Positions 5,097 to 42,630 of a stretch of DNA of 64,000 nt are shown in pieces (the first letter of the stretch is position 1; each line of letters starts with the position of its first letter). Source of the DNA: a virus; IMG/VR virus record IMGVR_UViG_3300045988_183511. The stretch is one strand, 5' to 3'. Under the pieces are notes generated by a model. It did not search any database. It was not told where the DNA came from and saw only the letters and a program-made list of their open reading frames with translations. The translations under genes were made by a program, and so were the position numbers.

Positions 5097-5181
5097 AGCC
5101 AAATTCTCCTTAACAAACAAAATGCCCCGGCAGCATCCAATTCAGATGCCGCCAGGGCACAATTTTTATCTTATTAGGGTT

Positions 5182-5209: not shown

Positions 5210-5225
5210 GCGTTTCCCTCCCCCC

Positions 5226-5272
5226 CCCAAAAAAAGAAAGAAAGACCCTTACCGAATTTCGGTAAAGGTCTT
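5226..5272 (-). terminator. rho-independent terminator after macro-domain gene
   Basis: minus strand AAGACCTTTACCG-AAAT-CGGTAAGGGTCTT hairpin followed by TCTTTCTTTTTTT. Confidence 0.5.
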
Positions 5273-5279
5273 ATTGCTA

Positions 5280-5756
5280 TTATTTCTGGAGTTCCCAAAT
5301 CTCAACATTCAGATTCCAGGCTTTTGCTGCATCGCTGATGATGTCCAGAACCGTGTCCCAGTCGCCTCCGGCAAGGCCGCAGCCTAAACCATATGGCAGC
5401 CGGACGATTGCGCTCTGATTCTTTTGAGCGCAGTCTCTAAAAAACGAGAACAGCGCAGCCGCCAGTGCAGCATAATTCGTCTGCCTTTCACCTCGGCCAT
5501 AACCATTCTGCCCGAACAGATTCACGACATACAGCTTCGGTTCTACCAGAACCTCCTGGTAAGTACCGAGCTTGTTGCCGTTGTTTCCATAGCAAAACTC
5601 CAGATAGCGCTGATATACCACCGGCCATTGGCTGCGAATTTGCATCGCGAGTCCGGCTCCCATCACGCCTTTGCAATTTACTTGCTGGCAAATGTAAGTT
5701 GGCTTACTCGCAGAAAGTCGTGAAAAAATATTGCCGTCGATAAATTTAATGTCCAT
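5280..5756 (-). CDS. macro domain (ADP-ribose binding/processing) protein
   Basis: ORF track; YICQQVNCKGVMGAGLAMQI matches the macro/Appr-1-p fold glycine-rich loop (VNAAN..GGGVAGAI); start set to MDIKFIDG (RBS AAGGGTGG). Confidence 0.6.
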   Translation of the reverse strand: MDIKFIDGNIFSRLSASKPTYICQQVNCKGVMGAGLAMQIRSQWPVVYQRYLEFCYGNNGNKLGTYQEVLVEPKLYVVNLFGQNGYGRGERQTNYAALAAALFSFFRDCAQKNQSAIVRLPYGLGCGLAGGDWDTVLDIISDAAKAWNLNVEIWELQK

Positions 5757-5757
5757 C

Positions 5758-6165
5758 TTACTTACCACCCTTTCCAAATTTCGAAGCATTCCCTGGATAG
5801 ATGGTGTAGTCCGTGCCATAATCAACGTTATTGTCTCGGTATACGAGCTCTACATTCGACATGCTGGTATAGAAAATCTTGTCTCGGTAACGGCTATCAC
5901 CGATTTCAAATTTGATGTTTTGCCCGTTGTCCACGATTTCGTAGCTTACGAGAGCGGATACGGTCCAAATGTTGTCGTAGCGAAAATGAATGTAATTGTA
6001 TTCCGGTTTCATCTCAGCACTTTCCGGTGTGGCCAATATCTGGTTCGGGATATCTTCGAGTTCAGACATTGTGGTACTTGTCACAGTGCTGATTGCGTCC
6101 TCACAGCCAGCCAAAAGTAGAGCCAGGCAGCACAGCACCAAAGCAGTCCCAATAAATTTTTTCAT
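5758..6165 (-). CDS. small lipoprotein
   Basis: ORF track; signal peptide with lipobox LLAGC; GGAGG RBS; stop 1 nt from macro gene start (operon). Confidence 0.55.
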   Translation of the reverse strand: MKKFIGTALVLCCLALLLAGCEDAISTVTSTTMSELEDIPNQILATPESAEMKPEYNYIHFRYDNIWTVSALVSYEIVDNGQNIKFEIGDSRYRDKIFYTSMSNVELVYRDNNVDYGTDYTIYPGNASKFGKGGK

Positions 6166-6214: not shown

Positions 6215-6294
6215 AAGCTGCCCAACAGCCATAAGGCCACTGAGCAGCTCAATATAAACCCTATTTTGTGTTTGATATCTGTCGTACAAATCTG

Positions 6295-6322
6295 ATTGTA
6301 CGAGCCTCGCACATCAGGTCAA
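6295..6322 (-). promoter_or_regulatory. minus-strand promoter, motif copy (TTGACC-tga-TGTGCGAGG-ctcg-TACAAT)
   Basis: read on minus strand; tandem with the 6189 copy. Confidence 0.45.
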
Positions 6323-6446: not shown

Positions 6447-6769
6447 TTAGCCCTCAATGTCGAAAGTGTAGCTTTCCTCTTTCATTGCAACAAGGCCCTT
6501 AAACGTCTGGCACTCGGCGTCGTCCAGGAATGCCTTGATGGTCAGGCTGGTATCCTCGTTATCCAGCCATTCGGGACGCATACGGACAACGAGGTCGTGC
6601 AGCTCTCCGACGACATAGGCCATCAGGTCCTGGTCGCCCAGGGCCTCACCAATTGCTTCATCATCGTATTCGACAGGGAAGCTGATGGAAGCGGCGAGGC
6701 CGTCGAGTTCGTCAAAATCTTTGGGACGGATTACAGTGGCTTCAAGTTTCAGAATGCTAGTGCTCATGT
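6447..6769 (-). CDS. small strongly acidic protein (about 107 aa)
   Basis: ORF track 6447..6902, start reset to MSTSILKL (AAAGGAG RBS); very high Asp/Glu content. Confidence 0.45.
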
Positions 6770-7819: not shown

Positions 7820-7850
7820 CTTTCTTCTATCCTTTCTGCTATTTACTGCT

Positions 7851-8060
7851 TTACCATTTTTTTCCGCCGTGTATACCGCACACCAGGCAAAACGCCTCGT
7901 CGATGCTCCTGCAGTTCATTGACCTGAACCCATGAGGGCCGGTGCGCATGTTCCCACATAAAGCATAGGTTTCACTCATGCCCCGGCCGCTGACACTGAT
8001 GGCGTTTCCAAAGGCATGAACGGTTGAGCCATCTCGACACATTACAAACATTATACTCAT
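7851..8060 (-). CDS. hypothetical small protein
   Basis: ORF track 7851..8087; start moved to internal ATG because the promoter -10 overlaps the annotated start. Confidence 0.3.
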   Translation of the reverse strand: MSIMFVMCRDGSTVHAFGNAISVSGRGMSETYALCGNMRTGPHGFRSMNCRSIDEAFCLVCGIHGGKKW

Positions 8061-8085
8061 CTCGCTTTCTGTTTCATTTCTTTTC

Positions 8086-8113
8086 ATTCTATGCGAATCG
8101 CACCACGAGTCAA
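8086..8113 (-). promoter_or_regulatory. minus-strand promoter, motif copy (TTGACT-cgt-GGTGCGATT-cgca-TAGAAT)
   Basis: read on minus strand. Confidence 0.4.
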
Positions 8114-8509
8114 TTTAAGACGTTCTAGAATAGGCATTCCATTGGGCGGCTCCCTCCTCTTTAGGCTGCTGCCAGTACAAAAAGAAAAAGACCCACCTGC
8201 TTGTGGCAGGTAGGTCATTTCTTATACTGAGCATTCTATTTCAGGTTTCTCGTTAGAGCCTTCCACCGTTCCTTCAGGCGCTCACCAAACTCTTCAACAG
8301 TCATCCGCTGCATGTGGTCGGAGAAGCTGCTAACCTGCTTGTATTCTAGGCCAATCTTAGTACACCCCTCCTTCAGGTTGGGTAGTTGACTTGTATGAGG
8401 TTCGCATAATCGGTCAACCGTCATACCTCATGAATCCGACCAGACCGGATTTTATTTTTTTTGAAACAAAAAAATAGCCCGCACAGAACTGAATCTGTAC
8501 GGGCTCGTA

Positions 8510-9010
8510 TTAGTCATGAGGATGTTCGTGGCAAGGTTCAGGCGGCATACCATGCGGGTCAGGCTCGGGGAAGTGGCCATGGTCCCCGATGATTTCCGAA
8601 GTACGGATACCGTTTGCTTTCCGGCAAGCCTCGATGGTCTTAGAAAGTACTTCCTTGACATCGCGCGGGTTCCTGATACGACGGATATCGATTTCAGGTG
8701 TCATGGCATCCGTGGAGCAGAGATGGATGCTGCCGACACGGCAAAGGCGCTCATAGAAGTTCTGCTTGAACGCGATTTCGTATATGAGGCTTACATGAAA
8801 ATGCTCAATCCCGCCTACTGGCATGTCTGCATTTTTATCTTTAATTACGAAGTCTAATGGAGTATTTGACCGTGTTGGTTCTACAATGTTATCTCCAATG
8901 ATTTCTTGAATAACATTTTTTGTGTATTCATACTTTGCCGCCGTTCTGGCAATTTTCAGGCACCGTTCTTCCGCGTCATATTGTGCTTGCGGACCATTGA
9001 CATCAATCAT
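8510..9010 (-). CDS. hypothetical protein (166 aa) co-oriented directly downstream of the RM specificity gene
   Basis: ORF track; 4-nt overlap with S subunit gene; His/Pro-rich C-terminus; no recognisable motif. Confidence 0.4.
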   Translation of the reverse strand: MIDVNGPQAQYDAEERCLKIARTAAKYEYTKNVIQEIIGDNIVEPTRSNTPLDFVIKDKNADMPVGGIEHFHVSLIYEIAFKQNFYERLCRVGSIHLCSTDAMTPEIDIRRIRNPRDVKEVLSKTIEACRKANGIRTSEIIGDHGHFPEPDPHGMPPEPCHEHPHD

Positions 9011-10056
9011 AAAGCAGCCTCATTTACTGTCATTTCATATTTTCCCATCATTACCTTCACCCGTTCTTCCATCTCCCTCATATACTCTTCCATATACGCC
9101 CAGTCAGGCTGACCTGTCTTGTCCTTGGGAAGCAAAATGACATCCTTGAGTAACTTCGTCCCCGTACACATTTCAGAGAAAGCGTATTTATCGGTAGTTA
9201 CTCGCTCAATAGCGCATCCGATAAACTGCATACAATGTTTAGTCATAGGCATTCTAGGCATAAGGATATTAACTCGACCATGGGACACAGCATAATACGG
9301 TTGCTCTTGATAGAATACTTTGCCAAACATATCTACGGTCAACGTATTTGCTTCCCAAAGACGGGCATTCTTGTTATCAATGAGCGCAATAATCCCATTA
9401 TTCTCTTTTCCAGACGACACGAGGGGGGTATTTCCTTCCACAATGACCTTGGGCTGAATGTCGTCTTTTGATAGAGCTGCGTCAAACAACTCCCCTACCC
9501 GGAACTCTCCCCACTCCCTCGCATCCACCTTTTTCTTCTCCGCATTCTTCGCAGCCTGCAGCAGGGTCAGCGACTCGGCGACTTGAGTTTCAAGGTTTGC
9601 TATGTAGGATTCCATATAAGCCCAATCGGGGTCGCCGTCAGGGGTGGTGGGGAGTTTAACCCTAAGGTTTCTTACTCTATCCACGCTCATTTTAAAGCCA
9701 AGCCAACCAAATTCAGCTCTCTTTCCAAAAATGATAGCGCAAAGAAAGAGCGCATTATATTTGTTAAGTGGGGTATGTGGCAAGGGAGTTAAAGTCGAAA
9801 CAATATTCGATGTGGTAAAAGCTTCTTCTTGATAAAAAGACGCTCCCATTGCACCGTCGGAAGCAACTGTAATGCAATTACCTTGATGTGTGGCTTCTTC
9901 GCAAGTGTTTGTAATCCCGTTGTTGAATCCACTGGTCGTAATATAGTTAACCGTTCCTGTTCCTAACTCGTCCTTTGCGTGAAACCTTCCATACTCGACC
10001 TTAAAGTAATCTCCAATCCGAAACTCCTTCCATTCGGAAGTATCAATCTTCCCCAT
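9007..10056 (-). CDS. restriction-modification specificity subunit with two target-recognition domains (BcgI-B / HsdS-like)
   Basis: ORF track; duplicated halves each ending in the conserved PDWAYMESYI / PDWAYMEEYM helix typical of S subunits. Confidence 0.7.
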   Translation of the reverse strand: MGKIDTSEWKEFRIGDYFKVEYGRFHAKDELGTGTVNYITTSGFNNGITNTCEEATHQGNCITVASDGAMGASFYQEEAFTTSNIVSTLTPLPHTPLNKYNALFLCAIIFGKRAEFGWLGFKMSVDRVRNLRVKLPTTPDGDPDWAYMESYIANLETQVAESLTLLQAAKNAEKKKVDAREWGEFRVGELFDAALSKDDIQPKVIVEGNTPLVSSGKENNGIIALIDNKNARLWEANTLTVDMFGKVFYQEQPYYAVSHGRVNILMPRMPMTKHCMQFIGCAIERVTTDKYAFSEMCTGTKLLKDVILLPKDKTGQPDWAYMEEYMREMEERVKVMMGKYEMTVNEAAL

Positions 10057-11863
10057 TATTGTCCTCTCCCTTCTCCACCAGAATGTTCGTGCCTTCCTCA
10101 GTGCCGGTCACTGTCGAACCGTAGAGCACCTTCTGCAGCAACTTGTCCCCGAACTCCTTGGCGTTGATGCCGCGCTTGTACATCTCGTAGTCCATCACGG
10201 TCTTGATGAAATCTTCCTCGTACAATTCAAAAGGCTTCTCCGGCATCTGATAGGACAGATGTTCAGCCGGATTGATAAGCTGGCGGGTGTTGTAGCGGTC
10301 ATCGTTGTCATCCTGTATTGCCTTGACCCAGTAATCTTCCAGCGCAGGCCACTTATCATGTACATCCTGCCGACCCTTGTTCTTGACCGTCTCCAGACCG
10401 TCATCAGCCACATAGTAGCCCTTGATGTTGCGCCCATTCTGAGGCTTGCCAGTCTCGAAGATGAAGATAGAAGTAGTAACGCCCAGACCGAAGAAAAGGT
10501 TCTCAGGCAGCTTGATGATGGTGGTCAGAGTATGGCGTTCCAGCAAGGCTTTCAACTTGGATTCCTTCTCCATCTTCTTATCCGGGAGAATGAAGGCACA
10601 CTTTGTACCTGCAGGAACGCTATCCAACACATTGGCAACGATTGTTGCACAACCGTATCGTCTCTCGTAAGGCGGGTTCATCAGGGTTTTCGTGATTTTC
10701 TGTTTCCGAATCCATTCAGTCGCCTCAGCCGAAGTGGCATCCATCTGCACAAGGTTTGTCTTACCGTCCTTGTGAATCATCATGTTGGCACAGGCCAGAG
10801 CGTAGACTTTCCGGTACATCTCGATACCGAACAACTGCTCAGACTTGATTTGCTTCGCCTTGCTGGTATTGCTGCCGCCTGCCTCACGAATCATATTGCA
10901 CATGCTCTTAACGAGGAAGGTGCCGGAACCACAGGTGGCATCCAGAACCCGGTCATTCATATTCACATCAATGAGTCGGTACATAAACGATGCAATATGG
11001 TCAGGAGTAAACACCTGTCCCGCCTGAGCCTTACCACGGTAGCGGTTGAACTCATTGAAGAAGATAGCCATGACATCTTCGCCATTCCAGTTATCGGAGT
11101 TGACGAGGTCGGCAATCTGGCAGACATTGTCGATGAAATCGTTGATGGCTTCCTGATTTTCCGTAATAGACATACGGACAGAGGCATACTCCTCCAAGAG
11201 TACATCCAGCTTGCTATTCTGCTTCTTATCATCTTCCAGAGCCTTAGACAGGGCACTGTAAATCCAGTTATGGAAGGTGCTGTAATCCATGTCTTTCAGC
11301 TTTTGAAGACCGTTCTGAGGGTTGTAACGCTGGGCGACAAGGGCACAAGCTGTGAAAATCATCCGGTCCTGCAAGTCCGTCATGCCGAACTTGAAATGCA
11401 GGCTGTTGTTGATTTTCTGCGTGATTTCGAAGATGTAGTTACTATCCAGTTTCTGGCTCGTACACAGGCGGATATAGTAGTCCTTGTTTTCCAAGCGCTT
11501 GGACGCATCAGACAGCTCGATTTTGTTCTTGAACACGCGGATAGCACTGCCGCTATAAAGAATACCGATGGTCTTGGAGTATTTCTTGGCAACTACATCG
11601 ATGTTCTTGAACAGTTCCTTGACATGCTTTTCCTTGGAAACGCCTTCTGTTTCCGATTTTGTCTCCAGAATAATGGCTGGTTTGCTGGCGTCATCCGGCA
11701 GATACCAGCCATCCGGCTTGTCATTGCAGCCACGGAACCCCAACTGGTTGAAGGTAGTGATTTGCCCAGTCCCCTGCTGCACTCCATCTTCGGTCTTATC
11801 AAAGCCAAGAACCAGCTTGGCACTGTCACGAACTTCGTCTTCCGTGCGAAATGCTTTTACCAT
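10043..11863 (-). CDS. restriction endonuclease-N6-adenine methyltransferase fusion (BcgI-A-like Type IIB, about 607 aa)
   Basis: ORF track; N-terminal PD-(D/E)xK-like PDGWY...ILETK; MTase motif I DATCGSGTFLV and motif IV NPPY; start set to MVKAFR (AGGAGA RBS). Confidence 0.65.
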   Translation of the reverse strand: MVKAFRTEDEVRDSAKLVLGFDKTEDGVQQGTGQITTFNQLGFRGCNDKPDGWYLPDDASKPAIILETKSETEGVSKEKHVKELFKNIDVVAKKYSKTIGILYSGSAIRVFKNKIELSDASKRLENKDYYIRLCTSQKLDSNYIFEITQKINNSLHFKFGMTDLQDRMIFTACALVAQRYNPQNGLQKLKDMDYSTFHNWIYSALSKALEDDKKQNSKLDVLLEEYASVRMSITENQEAINDFIDNVCQIADLVNSDNWNGEDVMAIFFNEFNRYRGKAQAGQVFTPDHIASFMYRLIDVNMNDRVLDATCGSGTFLVKSMCNMIREAGGSNTSKAKQIKSEQLFGIEMYRKVYALACANMMIHKDGKTNLVQMDATSAEATEWIRKQKITKTLMNPPYERRYGCATIVANVLDSVPAGTKCAFILPDKKMEKESKLKALLERHTLTTIIKLPENLFFGLGVTTSIFIFETGKPQNGRNIKGYYVADDGLETVKNKGRQDVHDKWPALEDYWVKAIQDDNDDRYNTRQLINPAEHLSYQMPEKPFELYEEDFIKTVMDYEMYKRGINAKEFGDKLLQKVLYGSTVTGTEEGTNILVEKGEDNNGED

Positions 11864-14695: not shown

Positions 14696-15148
14696 TTATT
14701 TACTCGTTTGTTTTTTTAGCTTGTCCCTCGTTTCCATCAGAATAATCCCAAGCCGGTTCTGACCCGGGATGTTCCGGCATTTCGGGCAATGGCAGTTTCC
14801 CCAGTAGTTATCGTGCCAACTGGTGGTATCTTCCTCGATTGGCTGCGTTCCCGTTTCGAGGAGACGCTGCTTGAGGTCTTTATTCTGTTCGAATTTAGCC
14901 ATCACCACGCGGCGCATTACATCGTCCCGGGTTTCGTCCCAGTTGGCAGGGAAAGCCACATGACGGCCAAAATGCTTAGCCGTTGCCGGAGGCATGTCTG
15001 AAAATTGTTTGCGCTCTTCCAGCGGAACCTTGTGGCTCTGAAACGCTGCTTCGGCATTCTTGTAACGAATCCCATTCATCACAAATTCGCAAGAATAATA
15101 GTTACTCATAAACCAGTAGCGAGGGGTATCTTTTCTGAATCGAATCAT
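14696..15148 (-). CDS. NADAR (YbiA/DUF1768-like) domain protein, predicted ADP-ribose/NAD-related hydrolase
   Basis: ORF track; WFMSNYYSCEF..GIRYKNAEAAFQSHK matches the NADAR signature F.SN.....F......Y...E..FQ..K. Confidence 0.6.
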   Translation of the reverse strand: MIRFRKDTPRYWFMSNYYSCEFVMNGIRYKNAEAAFQSHKVPLEERKQFSDMPPATAKHFGRHVAFPANWDETRDDVMRRVVMAKFEQNKDLKQRLLETGTQPIEEDTTSWHDNYWGNCHCPKCRNIPGQNRLGIILMETRDKLKKQTSK

Positions 15149-21683: not shown

Positions 21684-22571
21684 TCAGTAAATAAACTTGC
21701 ATTCCCGGCGTTCCCGGCCATTGCCGCACCAGTAATGCCGCCAGCGGGGGGTTTTGCCTTCCCCATTCTTTTTGTATTCTTTGGCCGCATTCTCACCAAC
21801 GGTATACGGTTTAATGTTGATTCGCTGTGCCTTTCCCTGAAACACGAATACCGGGCGGTCACGCTTTTTGGAAGTTTCCAAGCGGACATCAGGGTTCTTG
21901 CTGGCAAGATAGTTGGCGCACAGGATTGCCAGCCGGACATAAGGCGTTCCGTCGTCAAAGACCGAAGGCACTTCTTCCATTACGGCCGGAACACTGATAC
22001 CGTTCACTTGCCGCTGTCCTGCTGCCTTTTCCAGATATTCTTTCGTACTCCGGGTTGCTTCCGTCAAACTCTGATTTTCCTTGGCCCAGGCAGGCAGAGT
22101 CAGGAACGTGAAATCATCGTGGCTACCCTTAGTGGGGCCGACAAGAACGATACCGAAAGCTGTGGTTTTCTCTTTTTCGTCGAATTCCACATGCACGAAC
22201 ATACCGTTGTAGTCGTAGCTGTCATACACCGGGATAAAGAAATCACGAACCGGGAGTCGCTGCAGGATATCCTGATGAATTGCCACGTCATCCGTATCCA
22301 TCAGCATTTTCTGAAACTCGTAGTCAAAATCATAGACCGTCTTCGTCTGATTCCAGCAGCCAATGGTAAAGCAGGGAAAAATCTGCGCAGCCAAAACACG
22401 CTCAAAACCCGGCGTGTTCATTCTCTGCGCCGCTGTCATGCAGCACAGCATCGCGGACTTGTTGTATTCTTCCAGCGTTTTTCCACACGGGTCACTGAAT
22501 CCAAAATGGTTTCGGGTTTGTTTGGTAACGGCATTCGCCGTCAATGCGATTCTCAGCTGTTCATTGGTCAT
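21684..22571 (-). CDS. hypothetical protein (295 aa)
   Basis: ORF track. Confidence 0.4.
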   Translation of the reverse strand: MTNEQLRIALTANAVTKQTRNHFGFSDPCGKTLEEYNKSAMLCCMTAAQRMNTPGFERVLAAQIFPCFTIGCWNQTKTVYDFDYEFQKMLMDTDDVAIHQDILQRLPVRDFFIPVYDSYDYNGMFVHVEFDEKEKTTAFGIVLVGPTKGSHDDFTFLTLPAWAKENQSLTEATRSTKEYLEKAAGQRQVNGISVPAVMEEVPSVFDDGTPYVRLAILCANYLASKNPDVRLETSKKRDRPVFVFQGKAQRINIKPYTVGENAAKEYKKNGEGKTPRWRHYWCGNGRERRECKFIY

Positions 22572-23264: not shown

Positions 23265-23903
23265 TCATAGTCCTTTGACAAAATTCGGGTCGTAGTGGGA
23301 CAGGACTTCCTCGTTCAAGCTGTATTCGCAGTTGATAGTCGTTGCGTCATCCACATACATGCCTCGGTTTGCGTAGTATATTCCATCAATATAAATGGCG
23401 AACATGACGGACGGCATCAGTGCCTTTTCATTCACTGCGTAAATCAGGTATTCATCCAGATTATCCTTGACCACCGCGCTCTTATTGATTTGGGCGATTT
23501 GCTGTCCGCCAAGAAATACAGGGCAGCATACTCCTTCTTTTCCAAAACCAATTTTGTAGCTCTGGTATTCCTCGCCATACAGCTGCATGGCGATAGAATT
23601 GTATCCTTGGAGAAATCCGGTTTTTGTATGGATGACGGAAATCTCGCCTACCGTGCAGTTGTTCTCACGGATAGCAAAAGGGTATCTCAGAATATCTTTC
23701 GTGTTGATGCCGCGCATGTACGCCCTTGCGTCAGCAGCTGGCATGTATTGCAGCAGAAACTTGGAATCATTCAGCCGGATGCCATAACCCTGCCGTAGCA
23801 ATTTCGGGATATAGTGTGCCTGCCCGATAACGGCCTTGCCTTTCACGATATCGAAGGTGAACTCATATCCTTTCGATTTGGTTTGCTTCACAATCCATTG
23901 CAA
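23265..23903 (-). CDS. hypothetical protein (212 aa)
   Basis: ORF track. Confidence 0.4.
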   Translation of the reverse strand: MQWIVKQTKSKGYEFTFDIVKGKAVIGQAHYIPKLLRQGYGIRLNDSKFLLQYMPAADARAYMRGINTKDILRYPFAIRENNCTVGEISVIHTKTGFLQGYNSIAMQLYGEEYQSYKIGFGKEGVCCPVFLGGQQIAQINKSAVVKDNLDEYLIYAVNEKALMPSVMFAIYIDGIYYANRGMYVDDATTINCEYSLNEEVLSHYDPNFVKGL

Positions 23904-24144
23904 GACTCATCGCCTCCTTTTGCCTTCTCACTCGCTGGATAACCTTGTAAATACCAGGAACCGAGAGCTGATATTTTTCGGATAGTTTCTGCACCGGTAC
24001 GCCACTCTCGTATTCTCGAAAGATATTCTCATTGCGCGGTCTTTGTCTAATTTTGATGCGCTCATTTCTACGGTTTTCAGTCAGGCCCGCATCGTTGGCA
24101 ACCATGCTGCAATATCCTTCTGCCACGTTAAATTTCGCAATCAT
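23863..24144 (-). CDS. small HTH protein (sigma-70 region-4-like)
   Basis: ORF track; ESGVPVQKLSEKYQLSVPGIYKVIQRV helix-turn-helix. Confidence 0.45.
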   Translation of the reverse strand: MIAKFNVAEGYCSMVANDAGLTENRRNERIKIRQRPRNENIFREYESGVPVQKLSEKYQLSVPGIYKVIQRVRRQKEAMSLAMDCEANQIERI

Positions 24145-24492: not shown

Positions 24493-26658
24493 TTAGAGGT
24501 TAAAGATGCCCAGCCAGCGCCGAAACTTGATGCCGAACAATTCCTGTGCCTGCTCGTAGTTCATGATAAGCTGGTTGCCGCCAGAAATCTCTGCTTCGAG
24601 GGAGTTCGGCAGCTCATCTGCAATGTATTTCAGTTCGTACCACGGTCCATCCGGCGGATAGGAGTAAATGAGCCTGTTCTGCTTCTTATCAACCCGGAAC
24701 TTGCTCGGGTCAGCCTGCCATGCCAGTTCGATTTTCTCAATTGCAGCACGACCAATGCTCTCATCACCCATATAGTCGTTATAGTACAGGATACGCACAT
24801 AGTCCGGCAAATCGATTCCGCATGCCTCGAAGATATCTGCAATGACACTAGACGAAGCGTGGAAGATATCCGGGAAGTATTCCTTGCCATTCGCATTTTC
24901 ACGCATTTCCGTCGTCATCTCATCGATGCAAACAAGCATTCGGCGGACATATTCGCCATAGAACGCGGTTGTCAGCTCCGACATACTCTCATTCACACGC
25001 TTCGAGTTTTTGGCACCGCGCTCGTTGTCGATTTTAGCACCAATTCGACAGATGATAGCGCGTTTCGAGAGGTCTTTTGTCAGCGAGGTAATTTTATTCG
25101 ATGTGATAGATACAGCAGGATAGTTCACGAGCCTGTCCGAGATACCCCATTCATCGTTCTTGATTACCCGTTCTGAATGGTTCTGAAACTGGGTCTTGGC
25201 GAGGTCGTCGATGTTCAGCGGCAGTCCCTCACAAACTCGTTTGAGGCCGTCGATTCTTGTGGCTGTGAAATCCTCCGTTGTGTTCATCTTAACGGTCTCA
25301 CCGCTCATGAGTTTGATAAGAAATTTTATAAAGGTCGTCTTGCCGCCGTTTGAGTCACCGTAAATTACGCCGTACATCGGGAACAGCTTCGTATCGTAGT
25401 TGTTCCTTGACGCAAAATACCGAAGGTACGCCATGAACGGGGTAGCCAGATACCAGGTCATGTACTTGAAGTAGTCCTTCTTGGCCTGTTCGACATCGCC
25501 GTAAAAGTAGTCCATGCCTGAGAAGAACTTCTGGATGCTTTTGATGTTCTTTGCCACCTCGCTGAGATTCGGATTGAGGTCGATATTCTCGTCGTTGAAG
25601 GTCATGGTCCCGGCATCATAGTCGATATGTAATTTCGGGAGCTGCTTAACTGCCTCAGCTGCCACACGCCGAACCTCGGTATATCGTTTCCCGAAAACGC
25701 GCATCGGTTCCGCTGCCACTACAATACGATTCGCCTGTACCGGCATCTTAGGCATGATTGGCTTGACGAGTTCCTGCATTTTCTTGACATCGGCAACTAT
25801 CTCGTATTCGACCTCATCCTCAGGCTGTGCCTGTTCCAGAAAGACAAGCTTCTGCTTTTCAATAGACTGAAAGACGGGCACTTCTTTGATGTTCTCTTTC
25901 AGATAATCTTCCTGGTTCATGGTGTTCACGACTGCCTTATAGGAGACATTGTCGGAGCAGGTCTCCTTGAAGGTCTCGAACAGAACCTTGTAATGCGAAA
26001 ATGCCGCCTCGTCATCGAAGCAGACGATATTCTCTCGCTGAATGCCGCAAAACGCCGATGCCGACATATTCGCACTGCCGGTGATGACTCGGACACGCTT
26101 ATGGTCAGCGCTCTCCAAGATAAAGATTTTCTCGTGCGATTTCGTGTCTCGCGATACATACAGCTGCAAGGACCCGTCATCGAGGCGGTTCGCAAGGTTC
26201 CCTGCCGACTTAGACTTAGCGAGCCGCTGCACGCTGTCGATTTGCACCGACATGATGGCAGCAATGCCGTTGGCGATGATTTTCTCGCATCCGAACACGA
26301 CTTCCGCATACGAGAACTTGTTGATGACCTTATTCACGAACTCGATACCGGACGAAAAAGTGATAGCATAGAGTCTGTCGAACCCGTCAAACAACTCTTC
26401 CCAATTCGTTTCTACCGTATCAGCATATACCGCCTTCACAACACTCAACGCCTGCGTGGAGATGCTCGCCTTTGCCTTCGTGGTCTTGTTCGCCACGAGT
26501 TTGAAGGGCTTATCCGTCTGCCCTTCACTGTCCTCCATGTCCTCGCCGGGGTCCAAGAGTTCTTCCGGGCCTTCTACGGTATATTCGGGGCTTTTCGATG
26601 CCATCATGTCCATGAGCGACATCTGATTTTCCAAGTCGTTTGTTTTCCTTCTTGCCAT
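24493..26658 (-). CDS. PLD-like (HKD-type) nuclease domain fused to P-loop NTPase (primase/VirE-associated-like)
   Basis: ORF track; SHEKIFILESADHKRVRVITGSANMS resembles HxK..GSxN; Walker A GDSNGGKTTF, Walker B-like LNIDDL. Confidence 0.5.
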   Translation of the reverse strand: MARRKTNDLENQMSLMDMMASKSPEYTVEGPEELLDPGEDMEDSEGQTDKPFKLVANKTTKAKASISTQALSVVKAVYADTVETNWEELFDGFDRLYAITFSSGIEFVNKVINKFSYAEVVFGCEKIIANGIAAIMSVQIDSVQRLAKSKSAGNLANRLDDGSLQLYVSRDTKSHEKIFILESADHKRVRVITGSANMSASAFCGIQRENIVCFDDEAAFSHYKVLFETFKETCSDNVSYKAVVNTMNQEDYLKENIKEVPVFQSIEKQKLVFLEQAQPEDEVEYEIVADVKKMQELVKPIMPKMPVQANRIVVAAEPMRVFGKRYTEVRRVAAEAVKQLPKLHIDYDAGTMTFNDENIDLNPNLSEVAKNIKSIQKFFSGMDYFYGDVEQAKKDYFKYMTWYLATPFMAYLRYFASRNNYDTKLFPMYGVIYGDSNGGKTTFIKFLIKLMSGETVKMNTTEDFTATRIDGLKRVCEGLPLNIDDLAKTQFQNHSERVIKNDEWGISDRLVNYPAVSITSNKITSLTKDLSKRAIICRIGAKIDNERGAKNSKRVNESMSELTTAFYGEYVRRMLVCIDEMTTEMRENANGKEYFPDIFHASSSVIADIFEACGIDLPDYVRILYYNDYMGDESIGRAAIEKIELAWQADPSKFRVDKKQNRLIYSYPPDGPWYELKYIADELPNSLEAEISGGNQLIMNYEQAQELFGIKFRRWLGIFNL

Positions 26659-40574: not shown

Positions 40575-41105
40575 TCATCCGTATTTCCCAAGCGGTCGGG
40601 CCTGAAGCAAGGCGCTCACATCGAAACTGGAAGCGTTATACACCGTTACGCCATGTTCCAGAGCGTATTTTACCGTATATGCTGTGCCTCCAGTATTTCT
40701 AGTACAATAGGAGATGCAATAGGCAGAACAATCCACTAAATGCCGGTCTCTTAAAAGATATACTCCCCTGCTTGGCTCTTTTGCTATGTAGACTATCTTG
40801 TCCACCTGCTTATCTATCTTCTCTGCGTGCCGCTGCTGTTCTAAGCTCCATTTGGAACGGTATCCCTCAAAAGGCAGAACCTCAATGATACGAATACGGG
40901 GATGTGCAGCTTTCAGGGAAACCAGCATATCTGCCATGAGGGCATCGAACCCTAAAGAGCCTCCAACGCCAAAGTAGGTGACTCCCTGCTGGATGAGTGG
41001 AATGAGCCGATGCTCTACCCTGGCTAATATTTTGAGCTGTTCTCCCTGTGGGATATCCTTGTGCCCGACAAAGCAGCAGGTCTGCTCTCGATACTTGCTA
41101 TTCAC
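40575..41105 (-). CDS. SLOG-fold protein of the DUF1273/YpsA family
   Basis: ORF track; FVGHKD ... GVGGSLGFDALMADMLVSLKAAHP ... EVLPFEGYRSKWSLEQQ pattern resembles B. subtilis YpsA/YoqJ. Confidence 0.5.
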   Translation of the reverse strand: MNSKYREQTCCFVGHKDIPQGEQLKILARVEHRLIPLIQQGVTYFGVGGSLGFDALMADMLVSLKAAHPRIRIIEVLPFEGYRSKWSLEQQRHAEKIDKQVDKIVYIAKEPSRGVYLLRDRHLVDCSAYCISYCTRNTGGTAYTVKYALEHGVTVYNASSFDVSALLQARPLGKYG

Positions 41106-41358
41106 AGTGACCCTCCTTTGCTTCGACGAACCACTTGTCTACCTCATAGTACAAGTATGTTTTGGCTCTTCCTATCTGGCAGGTATAGCGTACCCCAACG
41201 CCGCCGGTCTTTGAGTATTTACGCGGCAATACTTCTGAGATGCAGGTGATGTCAAATTTCTGACCTGTGTCCCAGATGACCGTCTGAGGGGTCAGAATAC
41301 CTTCAGGAGAGAAATCGGCGACGACCTCGACATATTTCTTGGTTCTTTGTTCCGGCAT
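41098..41358 (-). CDS. small protein resembling the detached C-terminal (DUF4113-like) region of UmuC-type polymerases
   Basis: ORF track; same frame as the polymerase gene, separated by one TGA codon plus one sense codon. Confidence 0.4.
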   Translation of the reverse strand: MPEQRTKKYVEVVADFSPEGILTPQTVIWDTGQKFDITCISEVLPRKYSKTGGVGVRYTCQIGRAKTYLYYEVDKWFVEAKEGHCE

Positions 41359-41361
41359 GAA

Positions 41362-42630
41362 TCAAACGCTCCCCTGCAAATACCCATGTGGGTGAATCGT
41401 ATGGTTTCCCTTTGCATCGCAATGCGAGAGAAACCGGTCTTTGTACATGACGGCTCGCTGCACGGAATAATACCCGAACCGGTTCCGTATCCCATCGATT
41501 GCGGATTCGAGTCGTTCAGTCTCCTCCTGCTTTTCGGCGCTGTACTCAAATGATATCTGATTTGGTTCCGTATCCGGCCGCAGGTCAATGGCTCGCACGC
41601 CAACCGAGCGGAGGTGCTCGCTCCATCGGTAGTTCTTCTTGTACAGCTGGTAAGCTGCCTCCGCAATATCCTTTTCCTGCATCGTTGGCTGAGGCAGCTT
41701 GACTTGCCGCTCAAAGCTGAAAAGGCTGGAATCTCGGAGGCTCACCTCCACGCCTCGACAACGGAAATGGTTTTCTCTGAGTCTTGCTGCCACGCTTTCT
41801 GAAAGCAGATAGAGGACAATCAAGACATCCTGGTCAGTCTTCAAGTCCCGTGGCGTTGTCCAGCTGTTGCCAATGCTCTTGATAGGTGCTTGAGCTTCCC
41901 TGTCCTCGTATTTTGCTACCGTTCTCGTATCAAGCCCGTTGGCGAATCCCCATAGCATGGGACCGATTTTTCCGAGCTTCTCTTTCAGAAAGCTTGGATT
42001 GGCAGCCGCCAAATCGCCGATTGTATGGATACAGTAGCTTGACAATTTTTTCCCCGTTCTGGGCCCAACATACAAGAGGTCCGTGGCAGGCAGCGGGAAC
42101 ACGATATCTTTCCAGTTTGACCTTGATATGACGGTGATGGCATCCGGCTTTTTATAGTCGGACCCCAATTTCGCAAAGACTTTATTCCAGCTCACGCCGA
42201 TAGAACAGGTGATGCCGAGCTCATCCTTCACGGCGTCGGAGATTTGCTTGGCTATCTTTTGCCCGCTGCCAAAAAGAGACTGGCTTGCGGTACAATCAAG
42301 CCATGCTTCATCTAAGCCAAACGGCTCGACCATGTCGGAATATCTGAGGAATATCTCTCTGGTGTATCCGCTGTATCGTGTATATAAATCATAATGAGCC
42401 GGAACAAAGATGATATCTCGGCAATGCTGCTGTGCTTCCCACAGAGCCATCCCGGTTTTGACTCCCATCCGTTTGGCCGGATACGAGGCGGTCAACACAA
42501 TGCCATTTCGCCGTTCCGGGTCGCCACACACCGCAATCGGCTTTCCCTGCAGCTTTGGGTTATAAGCCGCCTCGCAGCTTGCGTAAAAAGAGTTCATGTC
42601 AGAGTGAAGTATCACTCGTTCGCTCACCAT
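41362..42630 (-). CDS. Y-family translesion DNA polymerase (UmuC/DinB-like)
   Basis: ORF track; N-terminal ILHSDMNSFYASCE...PIAVCG signature of Y-family polymerases; GGGAGG RBS. Confidence 0.65.
   Translation of the reverse strand: MVSERVILHSDMNSFYASCEAAYNPKLQGKPIAVCGDPERRNGIVLTASYPAKRMGVKTGMALWEAQQHCRDIIFVPAHYDLYTRYSGYTREIFLRYSDMVEPFGLDEAWLDCTASQSLFGSGQKIAKQISDAVKDELGITCSIGVSWNKVFAKLGSDYKKPDAITVISRSNWKDIVFPLPATDLLYVGPRTGKKLSSYCIHTIGDLAAANPSFLKEKLGKIGPMLWGFANGLDTRTVAKYEDREAQAPIKSIGNSWTTPRDLKTDQDVLIVLYLLSESVAARLRENHFRCRGVEVSLRDSSLFSFERQVKLPQPTMQEKDIAEAAYQLYKKNYRWSEHLRSVGVRAIDLRPDTEPNQISFEYSAEKQEETERLESAIDGIRNRFGYYSVQRAVMYKDRFLSHCDAKGNHTIHPHGYLQGSV

Follow-up and report, generated by a model that had tools for sequence, protein, structure and literature searches.

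The characterised proteins closest to the gene described here either remove ADP-ribose (ADPr) from DNA or dephosphorylate a derivative of it. SCO6735 of Streptomyces coelicolor strips ADPr from DarT-modified thymidine in single-stranded DNA and protects cells against DarT toxicity. Substitution Q85A abolishes this DNA de-ADP-ribosylation and N27S nearly abolishes it; auto-modified PARP1 is also a substrate, through a different, less defined mechanism (PMC9411070). Adpp of Vibrio phage Gary dephosphorylates ADP-ribose 1''-phosphate (ADPR-1''P), the product of the RES-domain defence aRES, and overcomes that defence. Phosphate removal lets NARP1 rebuild NAD+, and anti-defence requires all three genes of the system, Adps and Namat included (bioRxiv 10.64898/2026.01.28.702374). 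Among phage proteins acting against DarTG, AdfM (PhiKZ gp104) is a Lys-type macrodomain (N23/K78) that counters DarTG2 (PMC13309987), and AdfN, a NADAR protein, counters DarTG1 (PMC11825919). Macro, NADAR and YpsA-like SLOG domains co-occur and are fused to one another in DNA viruses, where a counter-defence role has been proposed (Iyer, Burroughs, Aravind 2022). Here we examine a 64,000-nucleotide stretch of the IMG/VR virus record IMGVR_UViG_3300045988_183511 (this whole stretch is the window), which derives from a large conjugative element of human-gut Clostridia. Its gene at 5280..5756 (minus strand) encodes a single-domain protein of 158 amino acids, hereafter the macro protein, which we assign from its sequence and modelled structure to a Gln-type branch of the ALC1-like macrodomains.

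A first-pass annotation of the window had taken the glycine-rich loop at residues 24-40 (QQVNCKGVMGAGLAMQI) as the sign of a macro fold, and profiles, PDB matches and structure prediction all bore this out. The Pfam Macro profile (PF01661) was a near miss (20.8 bits against a gathering score of 22; E 3.8e-4; profile positions 4-118 of 118), and many homologues with 45% identity do carry PF01661. The best profile match was phrog_335, annotated as ‘phosphatase’, over the whole protein (E 8e-37). DarG profiles aligned in their N-terminal, macro half only (NCBIfam, E 4e-14; PADLOC, E 5e-15), the NCBIfam model reaching 52.6 bits against a cutoff of 250 with positions 1-148 of 338 covered. In a phmmer search of PDB sequences, every significant match was BT1257, TARG1, Poa1p, SCO6735 or DarG, with SCO6735 (5E3B) at E 9e-13, Poa1p at E 1e-6 and TARG1 matching weakly. 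The AlphaFold2 model (predicted local distance difference test, pLDDT, 90.9; predicted template modelling score, pTM, 0.88) has the three-layer alpha/beta/alpha macro fold. Of the PDB matches that Foldseek returned at E <= 1e-3 (123 in total), 50 were listed, almost all of them macrodomains (one was a designed protein). The top 17 were all ALC1-like (BT1257, TARG1, Poa1p, SCO6735 and DarG), with template modelling (TM) scores of 0.74-0.87, the best being BT1257 at 0.87. Because profiles, PDB sequence matches and the AlphaFold2/Foldseek comparison agree despite the Pfam near miss, we place the macro protein in the ALC1-like class together with TARG1, DarG, SCO6735 and Poa1p.

Active-site positions were read from an alignment with the DarG of a genuine DarTG locus in Mesorhizobium, the aligned segments of SCO6735 and BT1257, and sequences of TARG1 and Poa1p that reproduce the published numbering K84/D125 and H23/S30/F152. 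The macro protein, which starts MDIKFIDGN, retains its active-site residues. Both ADP-ribose/phosphate-binding glycine loops are kept (G30-V-M-G-A-G-L-A37 and G125-C-G-L-A-G-G131) and show little or no variation across the subfamily. Asn27 aligns with SCO6735 N27, and Gln83 with SCO6735 Q85, DarG K80 and TARG1 K84, while Ala129 occupies the position of TARG1 D125. Other key positions are N79, G87 and W133. In an alignment of 34 sequences, Q83, both glycine loops and W133 were invariant and N27 was present in at least 90%. Among 176 aligned sequences, position 83 was Gln in 164, Glu in nine and a gap in one, Lys occurring in the DarG and TARG1 controls only. The loop that follows (Q83-NGYGRGER) carries basic residues R88 and R91; it is two residues shorter than that of SCO6735 (K89, K94), and similar basic residues occur in Adpp-like proteins. 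As judged from these alignments, an SCO6735-like Asn27/Gln83 arrangement replaces the lysine of DarG and TARG1. A variant of about 230 amino acids with Glu for Gln83 (HLFAENIPTG) and a C-terminal extension was seen in loci L079-L089 of our retrieved set, from Anaerostipes, Ruminococcus, Blautia, Sellimonas and related genomes. Seven of these loci (L079, L080, L082, L083, L084, L087 and L089) encode it within about 2 kb of a NADAR protein closely related to that of the window.

SCO6735 and BT1257 (2FG1/2AFC) resemble the macro protein in being single-domain and free-standing, with the toxin partner absent, and in their fold (TM 0.78-0.87). The three proteins share Asn27, Gln in place of Lys and an identical second loop (GCGLAGG.W), and the loop after the Gln, with its basic residues, may be comparable in its extension. 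Identity is nevertheless only 28-34%, the first loop reads VNCKGVMGAGLA in the macro protein (DarG/Adpp-like) and CNDxGGWGKGF in SCO6735 and BT1257, and these two are chromosomal whereas the macro protein is carried by a conjugative element. DarG has a homologous macro domain (profile E about 1e-14), with the loop VNCxGVMGxG in common, and the two proteins may act on the same product, thymine-linked ADPr. They differ in that the macro protein has Gln83 instead of Lys80, lacks the C-terminal DarT-binding domain (158 against about 330-380 amino acids) and has no darT gene next to it, as searched with one DarT2 query. A DarTG toxin–antitoxin pair was accordingly rejected: that query found no DarT, and the DarG C-terminal domain and the catalytic Lys are missing. 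AdfM is alike in concept, being a stand-alone macrodomain on a mobile element that works as an orphan antitoxin.

Searches for partners likewise pointed to an orphan. No DarT homologue was found among the six-frame open reading frames (ORFs) of the window (one DarT2 query, no DarT1 seed; best E 0.73) or, with the same DarT2 query, in any retrieved locus of the macro subfamily. The precomputed gene lists of the element contained no Pfam match to DUF4433 or to an ADP-ribosyltransferase (ART), and no RES domain was detected in the window or the retrieved flanks. The subfamily itself also occurs in phages: tblastn with the Gln-type query retrieved records from 614 phage genomes and the Lys-type query retrieved 501 records, these being separate queries whose sets may overlap. 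In species-representative genomes, a single-protein search gave no match and a profile search gave only relatives with at most 55% identity to the macro protein.

The element that carries the gene is conjugative. The window is identical, in reverse orientation, to ~79.8-143.8 kb of ENA ERZ28577608 FENG15-1 scaffold_2 (244,716 bp). A VirB4/TraC-like ATPase of a type IV secretion system (T4SS) at 54956..57625 (minus strand) marks the element as conjugative, and a VirD4/TraG-type coupling protein is encoded at 60793..62961 (minus strand). Beyond the coupling protein, syntenic contigs encode a T4SS pilin, an M23 hydrolase and a 2045-amino-acid protein. Given the VirB4, VirD4, pilin and hydrolase genes, we regard the element as conjugative and not as a phage; a weak ‘terminase’ PHROG match that might have indicated phage origin proved to be the VirB4-like ATPase. 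No near-identical DNA was found in INPHARED phages or PLSDB plasmids. It is a large and very prevalent conjugative element of human-gut Clostridia: the exact VirD4 protein recurred in 670 collection blocks, a Y-family polymerase of the element in 360 and the macro protein in at least 45, and clusters of the macro protein at 90% identity have hundreds of members.

The window also encodes a NADAR protein of the YbiA type (14696..15148, minus strand; 150 amino acids), as the first-pass annotation had proposed. It exceeded the cutoffs of Pfam PF08719 (92.3 against 35.1 bits) and TIGR02464 (79.2 against 73.7). Its residues E33, K40, E106, D113 and W116 align with E43, K50, E125, D130 and W133 of the P. 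nicotianae NADAR, in whose solved structure the corresponding residues bind and cleave ADPr, so that the catalytic residues are in place here as they are in the macro protein. NADARs of several clades hydrolyse guanine-linked ADPr. AdfN, DarG1 and Escherichia coli YbiA share with the window protein the NADAR fold, the E..K motif, a Glu/Asp plus Trp and a free-standing architecture. On the other hand, the window NADAR has Glu106 where DarT1-associated NADARs have Asp and phage NADARs have His, and it lacks the N-terminal extension of DarG1. A DarT2 query found no darT next to the NADAR gene.

On these grounds the macro protein is very probably an active hydrolase of the ADP-ribose C1'' bond with a function in conflict with NAD-consuming systems. 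As a free-standing macrodomain it would bind ADP-ribose through its two glycine-rich loops and cleave the C1'' bond of the ribose, Asn27 and Gln83 serving catalysis in place of the lysine of DarG and TARG1, as in SCO6735. For its substrate, our tentative first choice is thymine-linked ADPr on DNA. An orphan eraser lacking a cognate toxin would remove thymine-linked ADPr, laid down by DarT2-type enzymes of the host, from single-stranded DNA, and erasure would protect the DNA of the element, which enters recipients single-stranded. The YbiA-type NADAR would do likewise for guanine-linked ADPr. Thymine-linked ADPr is favoured because the Adpp route depends on NARP1 partners, which were not found in the window or the retrieved flanks and are not linked to the gene in 77 of 80 genomic relatives, because the element also carries a member of a guanine-ADPr eraser family, and because conjugative DNA enters in the single-stranded form that DarT modifies. 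That macrodomain and NADAR proteins reverse DNA ADP-ribosylation and act in phage counter-defence, as the first-pass annotation had stated, is backed by published work (AdfN, PMC11825919; AdfM, PMC13309987). For the macro, NADAR and SLOG genes of this element as a set, we infer a counter-defence role. Should it be right, ADP-ribose erasers would serve counter-defence not only in phages but also in a conjugative element that is very common in the human gut microbiome. Published phage precedents already include orphan antitoxins of the NADAR (AdfN) and macro (AdfM) kinds, the phosphatase Adpp and the co-occurrence of Macro, NADAR and SLOG; the gain is therefore incremental, and the setting somewhat new.

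Several observations weigh against a DNA-directed eraser. The macro protein is about equally similar to an Adpp ortholog defined by synteny, from Vibrio phage 184E37-2 (BLASTP 62.8 bits, 28% identity, E 5e-18, full length), and to SCO6735 (51.6 bits). In a rough neighbour-joining tree lacking support values, it nests with NARP1-linked phage proteins, with SCO6735/BT1257 and Poa1p outside. Its best profile, phrog_335, is named for a phosphatase. Gln24 stands at the position of Poa1p His23, which is His in SCO6735 too, and a PhiKZ-type (Phikzvirus) homologue of AdfM matched the macro protein over a 30-residue loop only. The window shows no depletion of TNTC, the motif of DarT2, and neither a relaxase nor an oriT was found in the ORFs scanned, which bears on where the gene lies relative to oriT. 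The gene also seems dispensable, as related contigs carry disrupted copies (described below). The presence of DarTG in the host clade and the restriction of conjugation by DarTG are premises and not established facts. A precedent for the eraser reading is that leading regions of plasmids are enriched in orphan antitoxins, as found in a study that does not mention DarG, NADAR or ADP-ribosylation (PMC11541004); our literature search returned no paper linking DarG to conjugation.

Much of this evidence fits an Adpp- or Poa1p-like phosphatase, the alternative that we rank second: possible, though less probable, and better supported by phylogeny. Such an enzyme would convert ADPR-1''P to ADP-ribose, the substrate arising from NAD+ phosphorolysis by RES proteins (aRES, RES toxins) or from RNA 2'-phosphate removal, and the conversion would detoxify ADPR-1''P or feed NAD+ reconstitution. 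Apart from the strong phrog_335 match and the position in the NARP1-linked clade, it is supported by the gene order of phage homologues. The 184E37-2 protein, which also has Gln at the Q83 position, is encoded inside an Adps-macro-Namat operon (L104:3163-6104), and in Pakpunavirus phiMK the homologue (gp154; L101:1-4529) has Adps and Namat ahead of it and a gene for a DprA-like SLOG protein after it; in both cases the macro protein of the window is similar over its full length. Vibrio phage Gary Adpp, moreover, has been shown to act on this substrate and to overcome aRES. In genomes, Adps and Namat lie directly upstream of the macro gene in three of the 80 loci. The remaining 77 are not NARP1-linked, so that support of NARP1 is not the default role of the family. 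A NARP1 partnership was rejected for the window protein: neither Adps nor Namat homologues were found in the window or in the retrieved flanks of the element family, and the published system needs all three genes. Adpp is thus like the macro protein in its phrog_335 membership, the Gln of its loop, its carriage on a mobile element and its counter-defence logic, and unlike it in its neighbours; the comparison was made with the 184E37-2 ortholog and not with the Vibrio phage Gary protein. With respect to Poa1p, Gln replaces His23 and Val replaces Ser30 in the macro protein. Many macrodomains also show a non-physiological ADPR-1''P phosphatase activity in vitro, which counts against the phosphatase reading.

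Sequence, isoelectric point (pI) and the rough tree did not separate DNA hydrolase from phosphatase function, and sequence cannot choose between thymine-ADPr DNA and ADPR-1''P, since the Gln-type relatives SCO6735 and Adpp differ in substrate. The macro protein thereby points to a large, mostly uncharacterised Gln-type subfamily whose two tested relatives differ, one acting on thymine-ADPr DNA and the other on ADPR-1''P, and it is a convenient member for asking whether one active site does both jobs. Macro homologues embedded in or following Adps-Namat (NARP1) operons were also seen at loci L072, L077 and L090, and in the T4-like Vibrio phage K567 (L105) the homologue adjoins polynucleotide kinase and RNA ligase genes.

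A protein de-mono-ADP-ribosylase of the TARG1 type, reversing the modification that ART toxins, effectors or phage enzymes place on proteins of the host or the element, is unlikely. The macro protein belongs to the same ALC1-like class as TARG1, and SCO6735 acts on auto-modified PARP1 as well. However, the catalytic dyad Lys84/Asp125 of TARG1 is replaced by Gln83/Ala129, the protein-directed activity of SCO6735 follows its own, less defined mechanism, and the precomputed Pfam lists of the element show no ART gene.

Slightly less probable again is that the gene is a passenger or decaying cargo without a current conflict role, or that its product binds ADP-ribose without catalysis. Chimeric and truncated copies in related contigs speak for it. 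In P0083, macro residues 1-79 are followed by a foreign ORF, and in P0075 a foreign N-terminus precedes a macro sequence starting from KLYIVNLFGQ, so that both break at the catalytic N79/Q83 loop; in P0236 this foreign ORF is fused to the lipoprotein encoded next to the macro gene. P0031 joins a DUF4379-like zinc-ribbon protein to the part of the macro protein that runs from about residue 48 to residue 158, and P0189 joins NADAR residues 1-80 to the lipoprotein. These chimeras suggest insertions or deletions by mobile genes, or assembly chimeras. Many members of the macro cluster (P0123-P0134) are 127 amino acids long and start at Met32; they could be alternative gene calls or N-terminally damaged copies and, if real, they are without Asn27 and strand 1. 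The neighbourhood, too, is mosaic, being made up of HNH, RRXRR and DUF4379 genes of the selfish kind. Against decay, the window copy is intact and keeps all residues invariant in the subfamily, its gene is coupled at the start and ends in a terminator of its own, and the protein recurs unchanged across the collection in the numbers given above.

The third of the ADP-ribose- or NAD-related folds that the first-pass annotation had listed is a SLOG protein of the YpsA clade (40575..41105, minus strand; 176 amino acids; PF06908, 56.2 against a cutoff of 27.7 bits). Profile searches thus recovered all three folds, the sub-threshold Macro score being backed by the other profiles and by structure. 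The GxD/E ligand motif of the SLOG protein (G52-F53-D54) aligns with G53-V54-E55 of YpsA; where YpsA has E44 and W45, the window protein has Thr and Tyr. Its fold and motif therefore stand, whereas the NAD/ADPr link is a published prediction (Iyer et al. 2022). The SLOG gene is the last of three close-set genes in a minus-strand run (40575..42630) that begins with a Y-family (IMS/UmuC-like) translesion polymerase (41362..42630) and continues with an 86-amino-acid ORF; the run is probably one operon. Genes for a regulator with ImmA/IrrE and helix-turn-helix domains, a metallophosphatase and a HipA-like kinase adjoin it. The large-phage sets of Iyer et al. 2022 resemble this element in combining the same three domain families on one mobile element. 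They differ in that the host element here is T4SS-bearing and conjugative, that the genes are dispersed (9 and 35 kb apart, with no cluster) and that the SLOG gene lies directly downstream of a Y-family polymerase gene. On a Bacillus thuringiensis plasmid, SLOG and macro domains are fused, the SLOG half matching the window SLOG protein (E 1e-9) and the macro half being Gln-type. In nine of the 80 genome loci and in Bacillus phage PJN02, the macro subfamily gene has a NADAR gene no more than 6 kb away. This proximity in the genome loci, together with the fusion, argues that Macro, NADAR and SLOG are functionally linked in general.

The same fusion, and the role that Iyer et al. 2022 propose for viral Macro/NADAR/YpsA-like SLOG sets, would also suit the processing of soluble immune signals derived from ADPr, such as the cyclic ADP-ribose variants of Thoeris, by the macro protein together with SLOG and NADAR. 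We consider this improbable: it is purely predictive, no macrodomain of the clade has been shown to cleave such signals, and the three genes are dispersed over 35 kb. Returning to DNA erasure, we put forward, as a speculative generalisation, that large conjugative elements might carry a dispersed toolkit for counter-defence, in which a Gln-type macrodomain would be specific for thymine and a NADAR for guanine, alongside a translesion polymerase with a SLOG gene just downstream. If true, this would extend the orphan-antitoxin strategy of phages (AdfN, AdfM) to plasmids and integrative and conjugative elements, with the implication that conjugation is restricted by DarTG.

Directly upstream of the macro gene lies a lipoprotein gene (5758..6165, minus strand; 135 amino acids) with a GGAGG ribosome-binding site. 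Its product has a signal peptide of the classical type, MKKFIGTALVLCCLALLLAG followed by C, with the lipobox LLAG|C. A single nucleotide separates the TAA stop of the lipoprotein gene from the macro ATG, and no terminator was found in the junction. A terminator-like hairpin of 14 bp with a T-run (5272..5242, within a feature at 5232..5272; minus strand) follows immediately 3' of the macro stop; this stretch folds at -33.1 kcal/mol (z = -5.3) and marks the end of the lipoprotein-macro transcription unit. A second terminator-like hairpin of 18 bp (5122..5160, minus strand) separates the unit from a downstream UvrD-like helicase gene. The two-gene operon anatomy is thus real, in agreement with the co-transcription claimed in the first-pass annotation, but the pairing is confined to close relatives. 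Homologues of the lipoprotein (at least about 60% identity) occur in this element lineage only, and the one close homologue with a named source comes from Oscillospiraceae bacterium SCCA1. The lipoprotein matched no Pfam, PHROG, NCBIfam or PADLOC entry, its structure model is poor (pLDDT 59.6), and the single confident part, a small beta core, gave no fold match at E < 0.09. In relatives whose macro proteins are 55-62% identical, the upstream gene encodes a cytoplasmic protein of 200-208 amino acids, unrelated to the lipoprotein and overlapping the macro start by 4 nucleotides; an unrelated Big_2/CAP lipoprotein is encoded further upstream. A functional macro-lipoprotein module was rejected in view of this lineage restriction, the lack of a domain or fold match and the different upstream gene in distant macro relatives, and the pairing is best read as a lineage-specific adjacency. 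The conserved 200-208-amino-acid partner, and the many neighbouring ORFs that are unannotated, might instead hint at a true antitoxin of an unrecognised toxin of the element, for example a divergent ART, but this is very improbable: the partner in the window is an exported lipoprotein that cannot act on cytoplasmic targets, the partner in relatives has no Pfam match, and neither the DarT2 query nor the precomputed Pfam lists gave a DarT or ART signal.

The best promoter-like site upstream of the lipoprotein gene is a sigma-70-like match (TTGACC-16-TACAAT, 10/12; 6295..6322, minus strand), a consensus match only. A 16-bp hairpin with a T-run (6215..6250, minus strand) lies between this site and the lipoprotein start, which makes the promoter assignment uncertain; the hairpin could be the terminator of an upstream unit, or a leader structure or attenuator. 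A riboswitch or other leader upstream of the lipoprotein gene was rejected, since Rfam gave sub-threshold chance matches only. Just upstream of the lipoprotein gene, at 6447..6767 (minus strand), a very acidic protein of 106 amino acids is encoded (pI 4.05; 25 Asp/Glu against eight Lys/Arg). It is conserved in all close contigs, has no family match and is a candidate DNA-mimic anti-restriction protein. At the other end of the unit, between the helicase gene and the macro terminator, whose T-run it follows immediately, lies a C9 homopolymer (5220..5228; G9 on the coding strand) that could be prone to slippage.

The surrounding 60 kb look like an accessory, establishment or anti-defence region. 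They include a type I methyltransferase pair, HsdM and HsdS (9007..11863), with no HsdR recognised, as well as HNH, RRXRR and DUF4379 selfish genes, helicases, a HipA-like kinase and an ImmA/IrrE-type regulator. At 7820..9006, the cassette that separates the HsdS gene from the HNH gene varies among contigs otherwise alike in this region (compare L002-L006:4504-7205) and resembles a hot spot of gene exchange. An AcrVA2-like Pfam match (21684..22571), a Mor-family activator (23863..24105) and a PLD/NgoFVII-like nuclease (24493..26658) are encoded in one minus-strand run, and together with the HsdM/HsdS pair these genes resemble an anti-defence or establishment island. Further along, a run of large genes (28444..32807, minus strand) encodes a VWA-domain protein (564 amino acids), a 267-amino-acid protein and a flotillin/Band_7 protein (547 amino acids). 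A few kb beyond position 1 of the window, this element also encodes a metallo-beta-lactamase-fold protein with a faint match to Anti-Pycsar Apyc1 (L001:16475-17635) and a radical-SAM-like protein (L001:19294-20034). In three loci with macro proteins 55-59% identical to that of the window, type I-C cas genes (Cas3, Cas5d, Csd1 and Cas7) lie downstream of the macro gene, either directly or at a distance of a few kb (L010:6469-11259, L011:10719-12459 and L012:9637-12459), which indicates that the element family can carry CRISPR-Cas at this spot.

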